IMG/VR virus record: IMGVR_UViG_2695420579_000010
Length of the DNA stretch: 4,463 nt
Direction: 5' to 3' (one strand)
From: a virus
Lineage: Duplodnaviria > Heunggongvirae > Uroviricota > Caudoviricetes
The stretch's first letter is position 1. The number at the start of each line of letters is the position of its first letter. The notes beneath the pieces are model-generated. The model was not told the DNA's origin and made no database searches. It was given only the letters and a program-made list of their open reading frames with translations. This document shows positions 1,354 through 2,515 of this stretch, one piece after another. The translations under genes and the position numbers were made by a program.

Positions 1354-1516
1354 ACTTAAGTAGCGCGCAGGGAGAAGAGGGATGGACCCCGAACAGGGGA
1401 GAGCTATTTATCTGGAAGGATTCTGAAGATGAAAATCGAAGAATTGCGTGAAATTTTTAGTGAAAATGGCCTCTATGCTGTGCGCGTTGAGAATGGAGCG
1501 ATTGTCAGCCATTGCC
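1354..1516. repeat. Direct repeat copy A (leader, upstream small ORF, RBS and first 29 codons of X)
   Basis: Aligns without indels to 2159-2321 at an offset of 805 nt, with about 9 mismatches by eye. Begins with the palindrome ACTTAAGT (1354-1361). Confidence 0.9.
1382..1426 (+). CDS. Possible 14-codon leader ORF upstream of X1
   Basis: ATG 1382 preceded by GGAG (1371-1374) at 7-nt spacing; encodes MDPEQGRAIYLEGF; TGA 1424-1426 lies 2 nt before the X1 ATG. Speculative. Confidence 0.25.
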   Translation: MDPEQGRAIYLEGF

Positions 1517-2137: not shown

Positions 2138-2158
2138 TGCCGGAATAGAATCAAAAAT

Positions 2159-2321
2159 ACTTAAGTAGCGCGCAGGGAGAAGAGGGATGGACCCCGAACA
2201 GGGGAGTGCTATTTATCTGGAAGGATTCTGTTGATGAAAATCGAAGAATTACGTGAAATTTTTAGTGAAGATGGCCTCTATACTGTGCGCGTTGAGAATG
2301 GCGCTATTGTCAGCCACTGCC
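2159..2321. repeat. Direct repeat copy B
   Basis: Roughly 95 percent identical to 1354-1516. Starts 22 nt after the N gap and carries the same ACTTAAGT palindrome (2159-2166). Confidence 0.9.
2187..2234 (+). CDS. Possible 15-codon leader ORF upstream of X2
   Basis: ATG 2187; encodes MDPEQGSAIYLEGFC; stop TGA 2232-2234 overlaps the X2 ATG at 2234 (TGATG). Speculative. Confidence 0.25.
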   Translation: MDPEQGSAIYLEGFC

Positions 2322-2515
2322 TTCCAGACTACACAATTCTGATAATTCAGCCGTCTTTGCCAGCAGGCACGGGCGGCGCTCTCACGCATTTAAATCTGAT
2401 TGGTACCAGCATCCCCCATGCACTGAAGAACAGGCCGAATGGCTCATTCAGTGTTACCGCAGGCGCGGATGCGAGGTTAAAAAAGCCCTTAGCCTCGACT
2501 ACCGTCACTGGATAA
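2234..2515 (+). CDS. Hypothetical small protein X2 (shared N-terminus; C-terminal frame uncertain)
   Basis: ATG 2234 with GGAAGGA 8 nt upstream; 93 aa to TAA 2513-2515. After codon 29 the product is low-complexity (P/S/T/G/A-rich), and the -1 frame is also open through to 2589, so the true C-terminus may differ. Confidence 0.4.
   Translation: MKIEELREIFSEDGLYTVRVENGAIVSHCLPDYTILIIQPSLPAGTGGALTHLNLIGTSIPHALKNRPNGSFSVTAGADARLKKPLASTTVTG

Follow-up and report, generated by a model that had tools for sequence, protein, structure and literature searches.

In phages P1 and P7, translation of the antirepressor gene ant reportedly depends on an upstream open reading frame (ORF), icd, and is controlled at the ribosome-binding site of that ORF; icd is itself a functional gene of 73 codons, and the control is exerted by the phage-encoded c4 antisense RNA together with Rho-dependent polarity. 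The ant gene of phage P22 (Arc/Mnt operators, sar antisense RNA) has its own strong promoter and is silenced in the lysogen partly at the post-transcriptional level, and the antirepressors of the Salmonella Gifsy prophages (GfoA/GfhA) and of coliphage 186 (Tum) are under LexA control. We analyzed the 5' leader of rem, a gene for a protein of the same role, in a stretch of 4,463 nucleotides from a virus of the Caudoviricetes (IMG/VR record IMGVR_UViG_2695420579_000010), which, at its full length, is called the window throughout. The leader occupies positions 1354–1431 and would be transcribed from a sigma-70 promoter of the gene's own at 1320–1347. The best-supported conclusion from the comparison with related loci is that positions 1342–1400, that is, the −10 element and the first two-thirds of the leader, make up a portable expression-control cassette for antirepressor genes. 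How the cassette would work is more tentative: we put at roughly 0.4 the probability that it acts as a translational gate, located at an upstream AUG and at the hairpin that follows it.

The rem leader resembles icd-ant in that an antirepressor gene stands behind an upstream ORF whose ribosome-binding site is the proposed control point, but this ORF has only 3–25 codons and no conserved product, its coupling geometry is not conserved, and no antisense partner for the leader was found in a complete phage genome. Rem has the same role as the Gifsy and 186 antirepressors, and inactivates a short, non-cleavable repressor of the DicA/Gifsy type. Unlike theirs, however, the rem promoter has no LexA box, the promoter that Rem controls is not induced by mitomycin C, and the conserved element is a transcribed leader rather than an operator overlapping the promoter. 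With P22 ant, rem would share an own strong promoter and a silencing that is in part post-transcriptional, but its region contains neither palindromic operators nor a convergent antisense promoter.

The rem gene and its expression cassette

The preliminary description of this DNA had reported, in two repeat copies, a palindrome, a hairpin and a short ORF ahead of a gene that it called X, and all of these features were found in place in both copies. Gene X, at 1429–1716 on the plus strand in the first copy (copy A), is rem, encoding a 95-amino-acid (aa) antirepressor of DicA-type prophage repressors, an activity assigned to this allele by homology. Its product is 65% identical to Rem of Escherichia coli K-12 (b1561), its homologues carry PF27490, and the matching gene is labelled rem in phage records. 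Moreover, its position between hokD and the DUF1367/DUF968-Q genes is alike in K-12 Qin, O145, Rac and mEp460, the Qin order being hokD-rem-ydfU(DUF968)-Q. Rem was found by PSI-BLAST from the Gifsy antirepressor GfoA, and the K-12 protein, the only one for which antirepressor activity has been demonstrated, derepresses the DicA-controlled promoter dicBp 165-fold (Ragunathan et al., PMC10448788). According to the same study, the condition that induces Rem is unknown: native K-12 rem was silent in all conditions tried, the Rem-dependent target promoter in K-12 was not induced by mitomycin C, and the induction of dicBp by heat and urea was Rem-independent (PMC10448788).

Because single features of the leader, like its overall folding, are unexceptional, the case for it rests on comparison with related loci. 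Retrieval with Rem proteins from IMG/VR and metagenomes, together with loci already collected, gave 249 usable leaders, 78 of them distinct; a DNA pattern for the 5' block gave 117 usable IMG/VR loci, a divergent 55-aa Rem-like protein gave 21, and four annotated phage or prophage records were also compared. A single-protein search of genome contigs returned three loci only. These sets overlap, so that the counts given below are not independent (about 400 related loci in total), and every compared sequence comes from Escherichia, Shigella or E. albertii. The cassette, which consists of TAGAAT, 15–16 nt, GCGCGCAGGGA-N-AAGA-N-GGATGG and then the hairpin, is missing from just 2 of the 249 Rem-retrieved loci, and all 21 of those retrieved with the 55-aa protein have it.

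At the 5' end of the cassette, a consensus scan identified a sigma-70-type promoter on the plus strand of copy A, with a −35 element TTGATT beginning at 1320, a 16-nt spacer and the −10 element TAGAAT at 1342–1347. TAGAAT is invariant, and it is there that homology among unrelated upstream contexts starts. A TTG lies exactly 16 or 18 nt 5' of it in 40 of 42 distinct spacer contexts, which belong to about 10 unrelated spacer families; the spacer itself is not conserved, and the 5' block always starts 15 or 16 nt past TAGAAT. This gives strong comparative support to a dedicated rem promoter with a predicted start at about 1353–1355, and bears out the preliminary view that palindrome and leader begin at the start of transcription. 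Control by LexA was considered and rejected, as there is no CTG-N10-CAG box near 1300–1440 (the nearest look-alike is a CTT-N10-CAG with a G+C-rich centre), and the promoter scan of the window found no convergent promoter for an antisense RNA.

The most constant part of the leader is a purine-rich 5' block, AGCGCGCAGGGAGAAGAGGGATGG (1362–1385, plus strand), which contains a Shine-Dalgarno (SD) sequence, GGGAG (1370–1374), and an upstream AUG (1382–1384), the GGAG at 1371–1374 lying 7 nt from the latter. In all compared variants, 22–24 of its 24 bases are identical, versus 5–8 of the 8 bases that precede it. The leader's most variable part is the 18 nt 3' of GGATGG (11–15 of 18 identical), and in the Rac and SA53 types only 29–31 of the first 42 nt of the rem coding sequence are identical. 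Folding predictions leave the block single-stranded. Each phage genome contains it a single time, on which ground we rejected its being a repeated operator.

The cassette is common to prophages of at least four immunity types and has been recombined onto about 10 upstream contexts and three types of downstream gene: the long Rem (83–95 aa), a 57-aa form and the 55-aa protein (MNDKELIAALS...; MNDKELIAALSIPGNYEVIVLENGEF...). The last (L253, L274, L282, L298 and L371–L391, all from IMG/VR) shares only an N-terminal pattern with Rem and may represent a further antirepressor class; its leaders are unrelated to those of rem 3' of the hairpin. In the second form (57–58 aa; L254, L259, L290, L351 and L087, the latter from Rac-SA53), the first 24 or so residues are those of Rem and the C-terminal half is unrelated (..GGITYTALIPDDHVVLSVEAFIEYLERLGFKVVRE), which suggests a common N-terminal module joined to exchangeable specificity domains.

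The upstream start site, the hairpin and a possible translational gate

The upstream AUG is invariant in all retrieved cassettes. Its SD sequence pairs with the tail of 16S rRNA at −8.2 kcal/mol with 6-nt spacing in the duplexfold scoring, and is thus stronger than that of rem (GGAAGGA at 1414–1420, in a plus-strand ribosome-binding site that spans 1414–1431 and ends with the ATG), for which the value is −5.5 kcal/mol with 8-nt spacing; the upstream start site proposed in the preliminary description therefore stands. The upstream SD is weaker in variants with T or C in place of G1374. The main gene's own SD is poor in the Rac type and in the 55-aa family (−3.3 and −4.8 kcal/mol, respectively, with bad spacing). 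One IMG/VR locus (L382) has a 21-nt tandem duplication in the cassette (GAGGGATGGCCCCCATAA twice) and, as a result, two upstream ATGs.

Codons 2–6 of the upstream ORF contain the hairpin CCCC-GAACA-GGGG (1387–1399, plus strand; 2192–2204 in copy B), of predicted energy −7.6 kcal/mol. The window holds 101 perfect 4-bp stems with loops of 3–7 nt, nine of which are all-G/C. The stem reported earlier was nevertheless kept in every one of the 36 distinct variants, as 3–5 bp of C/G around a loop of 3–6 nt, with 99% of cells paired, while the loop takes more than 20 different sequences and is the only place where insertions and deletions occur. Substitutions in the stem are restricted to C to U on the 5' arm, plus one doubtful CG-to-UA change in L224; the 5'-arm changes keep G·U pairs in the plus-strand RNA, where the other strand would have A·C mismatches. 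These wobble changes and the loop variation, without clean double compensations, provide good evidence that the rem transcript contains an RNA hairpin under selection. The hairpin recalls boxB of the lambda nut sites in its short G/C stem and purine-rich loop of 4–5 nt, its variants CCCU-GAAA-AGGG and CCCU-GAGA-AGGG being close to GCCCU-GAAAA-AGGGC. Unlike boxB, however, it lies in the nin region behind an own promoter and inside a short ORF, its loop is not conserved (UUAA, AUAA, UCA, AAACA and others) and is GNRA-like in a subset only, and no boxA is visible by eye on its 5' side, where no formal search was made. As an alternative fold, GGG-AUGGA-CCC (1379–1389) could form a 3-bp hairpin with the upstream AUG/GGA in its loop, a competitor of the CCCC/GGGG hairpin for the run of C; its upstream G run is partly conserved (GGG, UGG or AGG).

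What the upstream ORF encodes appears to be of little consequence. In copy A (1382–1426, plus strand), its 14 codons (MDPEQGRAIYLEGF) are followed by a TGA at 1424–1426 and, 2 nt later, by the rem ATG at 1429–1431; in copy B (2187–2234, plus strand), it has 15 codons (...GFC), and its TGA (2232–2234) overlaps the ATG at 2234–2236 as TGATG. Shuffling the leader yields a closed ATG ORF of 14 codons or more in 18% of cases and, since ATGA contains TGA, no ORF in the upstream frame can extend beyond the rem start. The ORF has 3 codons in 61 of 153 distinct contexts (with its stop 34–39 nt 5' of the main start), 14–15 codons in 59, 8 codons in 12 and 22–25 codons in 8; it is fused in frame to rem in a further 8 and has other lengths in 5, the full range being 3, 4, 8, 11, 12, 14, 15, 18 and 22–25 codons, or fused. 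At least eight different truncating or frame-shifting events lie behind this variation: in K-12 Qin and the functional phage mEp460, a 1-nt deletion that leaves three codons (AUG GUC CCU UAA); two separate CCC UGA forms; a CAG-to-TAG change; loss of 2 nt in the Rac type; gain of a G, which puts the ORF and rem in one frame; losses of 1 nt, after which the ORF runs past the rem ATG; and a TGA arising within the rem SD. Even the peptides that keep the frame differ by about 12 non-synonymous and about 4 synonymous change types, in a by-eye tally. By this comparison, a sequence-specific role for the leader peptide is excluded, and with it the suggestion that MDPEQG[R/S]AIYLEGF[C] controls rem, as its length, frame and sequence all vary among orthologues. 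The translational coupling also proposed for the leader fares better in part: a stop next to the start is indeed found in both copies of the window, and coupling is plausible in these two alleles; however, only 59 of the 153 contexts have this geometry, and stop-next-to-start coupling, judged from the aligned loci, is an allele-specific and unconserved property.

We favor, at the probability given above, a gate for ribosome entry. Ribosomes would load at the upstream AUG and would have to melt the small G/C hairpin that locks the first codons, and translation of the short ORF, whatever its content, would set how often the weakly served main start is used. In the alleles of the window, ribosomes could terminate and reinitiate at UGA-AG-AUG in copy A and at UGAUG in copy B. 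Leaders of the 55-aa family have their main AUG within a predicted 8-bp hairpin (GUUCAUGG/UUAUGAAC), and the upstream ORF enters the 5' arm of this hairpin or ends beside it; here, upstream translation would unfold this structure around the main AUG. Overall, antirepressor output would stay low and conditional, and such tight control fits the silence of native K-12 rem in all conditions tried.

A second helix may add to the gate in some leaders. The U-rich strand UUUAUCU (1407–1413, plus strand), present in rem-type leaders only, is predicted to pair with GGAUGG (1380–1385) and so to bury the upstream AUG; about 97–98% of cells are paired, versus 41–72% in slid controls (RNAalifold, pair counts), and there is one AU-to-UA compensatory change, in the K-12 type, which we counted as a single event. 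As the 3' leader of the 55-aa family is unrelated, this helix is ruled out as a general feature. An RNA thermometer, for which this weak, G·U-rich helix over the upstream AUG was a candidate, was rejected, the induction of dicBp by heat being Rem-independent. At longer range, GCGCGCAG (1363–1370) pairs with CUGUGCGC (1478–1485, in the rem coding sequence) in the minimum-energy fold of a 131-nt RNA, and AGAGG (1376–1380) can also pair with CCUCU (1470–1474), both partners lying within rem codons 14–19. Together, these two pairings would close a domain of about 120 nt around the rem start, near-certain by energy. As a conserved feature, the former was rejected: its leader strand is invariant, and its coding strand, which undergoes free synonymous changes, shows five disruptive and three compatible change types.

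Several observations weigh against a translational gate. The commonest allele, that of K-12 Qin and mEp460, has a 3-codon ORF that ends 34 nt before rem and yet keeps the whole cassette, which rules out coupling to the main start as a function common to all copies of the cassette. An SD and an AUG would not by themselves call for all 24 bases of the block to be invariant, and the helix that buries the upstream AUG is unconserved in the 55-aa family. The leader as a whole folds no better than shuffled sequences (z = −1.3 to −1.9, with positive z in the 55-aa family). Finally, the sequences are close kin, and their conservation partly reflects recent common ancestry.

The octamer and alternative regulators

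The preliminary description had also singled out the octamer ACTTAAGT (1354–1361, plus strand; 2159–2166 in copy B), a palindrome next to the predicted transcription start, as a candidate operator. Perfect 8-bp palindromes are, however, at chance frequency in the window (13, versus about 17 expected), and orthologous cassettes carry TCTTAAGT, ACTTAGTT, GCTTAGTT, TTTTGAGT, GCTTGATT or ACTTGATT in the place of the octamer, and CGACGAGT in one recombinant cassette, most of the variant types being non-palindromic. Conversely, an identical ACTTAAGT accompanies at least four types of operator in the repressor-cro intergenic regions of the same prophages (CCTTAGG-N5-CTAAGG, GTTAG-N6-CTAAC, GTTAGTCATAACTAAC and TTGAGAAAACTCAA). 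Because the same octamer occurs with all of these, with no co-variation between it and the immunity operators, the comparison indicates that ACTTAAGT is not the operator of the cognate prophage repressor. The intergenic regions themselves (e.g., L001 1604–1679, L003 7852–7934 and L250 31190–31266), in which these four or more operator types were seen, use the related half-sites CTTAG, GTTAG and TTGAG, which fits a family of heteroimmune DicA-like repressors.

Such diversity of operators bears on who might regulate the cassette. Since at least four immunity types share it, a common regulator would have to be host-encoded, and the purine-rich block, with or without the hairpin, may be an mRNA platform on which a host post-transcriptional regulator (CsrA being the foremost candidate, or else Hfq with a host small RNA) blocks or permits translation on a host signal. 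We consider this possible, if on balance rather unlikely. It would explain why the 3-codon allele retains the whole cassette, why the 24-nt block is invariant beyond the needs of SD and AUG, and why heteroimmune prophages share it. The block is predicted to be single-stranded and contains ANGGA motifs at 1369–1373, 1378–1382 and 1382–1386; its two variable columns are the N of the second motif and the base directly after the first, and a further AAGGA lies in the rem SD. CsrA-repressed leaders (glgC, pgaA, cstA) likewise carry A(N)GGA motifs in multiple copies along a single-stranded leader, one at a start codon and one in the main SD, but the resemblance is one of motifs only, as the GGA motifs of the rem leader are not in hairpin loops of the dominant fold. 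In addition, AGGGAUGG resembles ARGGAUGU, which we take to be the core motif obtained for CsrA by SELEX (systematic evolution of ligands by exponential enrichment). On the other hand, GGU or GGC replaces the third GGA in the types of K-12 and SA53, and rem, which is poorly expressed, is not among the entries listed in the supplements of CsrA CLIP (crosslinking and immunoprecipitation) and ribosome-profiling studies. As to an antisense RNA, the complete 45.9-kb genome of mEp460 has no run of 11 nt or more complementary to the leader, 10-nt matches being at chance level. A literature search for the peptide or the block sequence gave no match.

Regulation might also be absent, or act on DNA. That the block has no dedicated role, being a recent and often exchanged mosaic joint which carries the promoter, with the upstream AUG and the hairpin as passengers, appears distinctly unlikely. 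The compared sequences are all very similar prophages of Escherichia/Shigella, the cassette sits on about 10 upstream contexts and in front of three downstream gene types, and the pair covariation is thin and mostly of the wobble kind; but the block is 22–24/24 identical where the adjoining coding sequence falls to about 70%, it is kept in the 55-aa family, whose 3' leader and gene are unrelated at the DNA level, and the hairpin region, though the most variable, has a stem in 36/36 variants and indels in the loop only. This contrast between the block and its flanks makes conservation by recent exchange alone unlikely. A near-consensus promoter ahead of an antirepressor gene must be silenced somehow and, as the −35/−10 spacer is not conserved, a shared operator could only lie 3' of it. 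The block, with its GCGCGC and its direct repeat AGGGA-N4-AGGGA, could then be a promoter-proximal operator (+9 to +45) through which a host transcription factor silences the rem promoter. We find this highly unlikely: the block lacks dyad symmetry and occurs nowhere else in the phage, the promoter region is free of LexA boxes, and the Rem-dependent promoter does not respond to mitomycin C. Furthermore, the sole inverted repeat, CCCC/GGGG, tolerates spacers of 3–6 nt, and its one-arm C-to-T changes keep pairing only in the plus-strand RNA, which is more in keeping with an RNA stem than with a protein-dimer site. Finally, we give almost no credence to the combination put forward originally, in which ACTTAAGT is bound by a prophage repressor and MDPEQG[R/S]AIYLEGF[C] acts as a leader peptide. 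In its favor, both copies have the palindrome at the predicted +1, and the SD of the ORF is good, but such palindromes occur at chance frequency, this one is not conserved and is identical across prophages with different operator half-sites, and in most lineages, the peptide has undergone truncation, a frameshift or fusion.

The two leader copies of the window and the control of Rem

The window is a scaffold drawn from the nin region of lambdoid prophages of E. coli, in which a run of N (2062–2137) forms a gap between two different prophage contigs. A gapless direct repeat, 1354–1516 versus 2159–2321, starts at the octamer and is 94% identical. A complete genome that is 100% identical over 1180–1760 runs on from copy A into DUF1367-DUF1364-DUF1133(Q)-tRNA genes, without copy B nearby; on this ground, the two copies are paralogous loci of two prophages brought together across the assembly gap, and not a tandem duplication. 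The join across the N run may be a mis-scaffold caused by the repeat.

In copy B, the leader (2159–2236, plus strand) comprises the octamer (2159–2166), the 5' block (2167–2190) with the upstream ATG (2187–2189) and the hairpin (2192–2204); it is preceded by a −10 TAGAAT (2146–2151, plus strand), the −35 element being lost in the N gap. It leads to a shortened rem (2234–2515, plus strand), followed by a DUF968 gene, rusA and the start of the Q antiterminator gene. By blastn against the O145 and K-12 loci, this rem has lost 250 bp internally (junction at about 2321/2322), and the resulting ORF is a 93-aa chimera of the first 29 or so rem codons and sequence normally found 3' of rem. Fusion proteins akin to this chimera are common in the protein database (P0065, P0072).

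Upstream of copy A, queH (epoxyqueuosine reductase, 110–796) is a cargo gene of the prophage nin region placed immediately 5' of hok. A complete locus of the hok/sok type spans 854–1300, with sok at 854–1029 (Rfam model match, 117 bits) and hokD at 1024–1179; by eye, GGGUGCUUGAGG at its 5' end (854–865) is complementary to CCUCAACGCACCC (about 1238–1250), like the fold-back element of hok mRNA, and a GC hairpin followed by a T run is present at about 1259–1298. The hok promoter (818–847) has the same hexamers as the rem promoter, TTGATT and TAGAAT, with a spacer of 18 nt instead of 16. Rfam gave no match in 1300–1500 at E-values up to 1, and only sok and one sub-threshold snoRNA in the whole window. 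Downstream of rem, a DUF1367 gene starts at 1755.

K-12 Rem is the sole known antirepressor of DicA, and its expression switches on the dicBF cell-division inhibitors; rem-like genes are present in most sequenced E. coli, Shiga-toxin prophage backgrounds included, and 4397 of 5426 complete genomes match the rem region. It is conceivable, though rather improbable in our estimation, that the cassette is an undescribed cis-regulatory RNA through which a non-SOS host signal switches on Rem-family antirepressors and thereby co-induces DicA-type prophages of different immunities; such a signal might be sensed through a global RNA-binding protein, a small RNA or the state of the translation machinery. 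Should the cassette turn out to be nothing more than a leader of the ordinary sort, with its short upstream ORF, the comparison would still correct the ideas of a palindromic operator and of a leader peptide. The comparison delimits a testable control element for the induction of Rem, and this element, being common to several immunity types, turns the question of what induces SOS-independent prophages into simple reporter and binding experiments.

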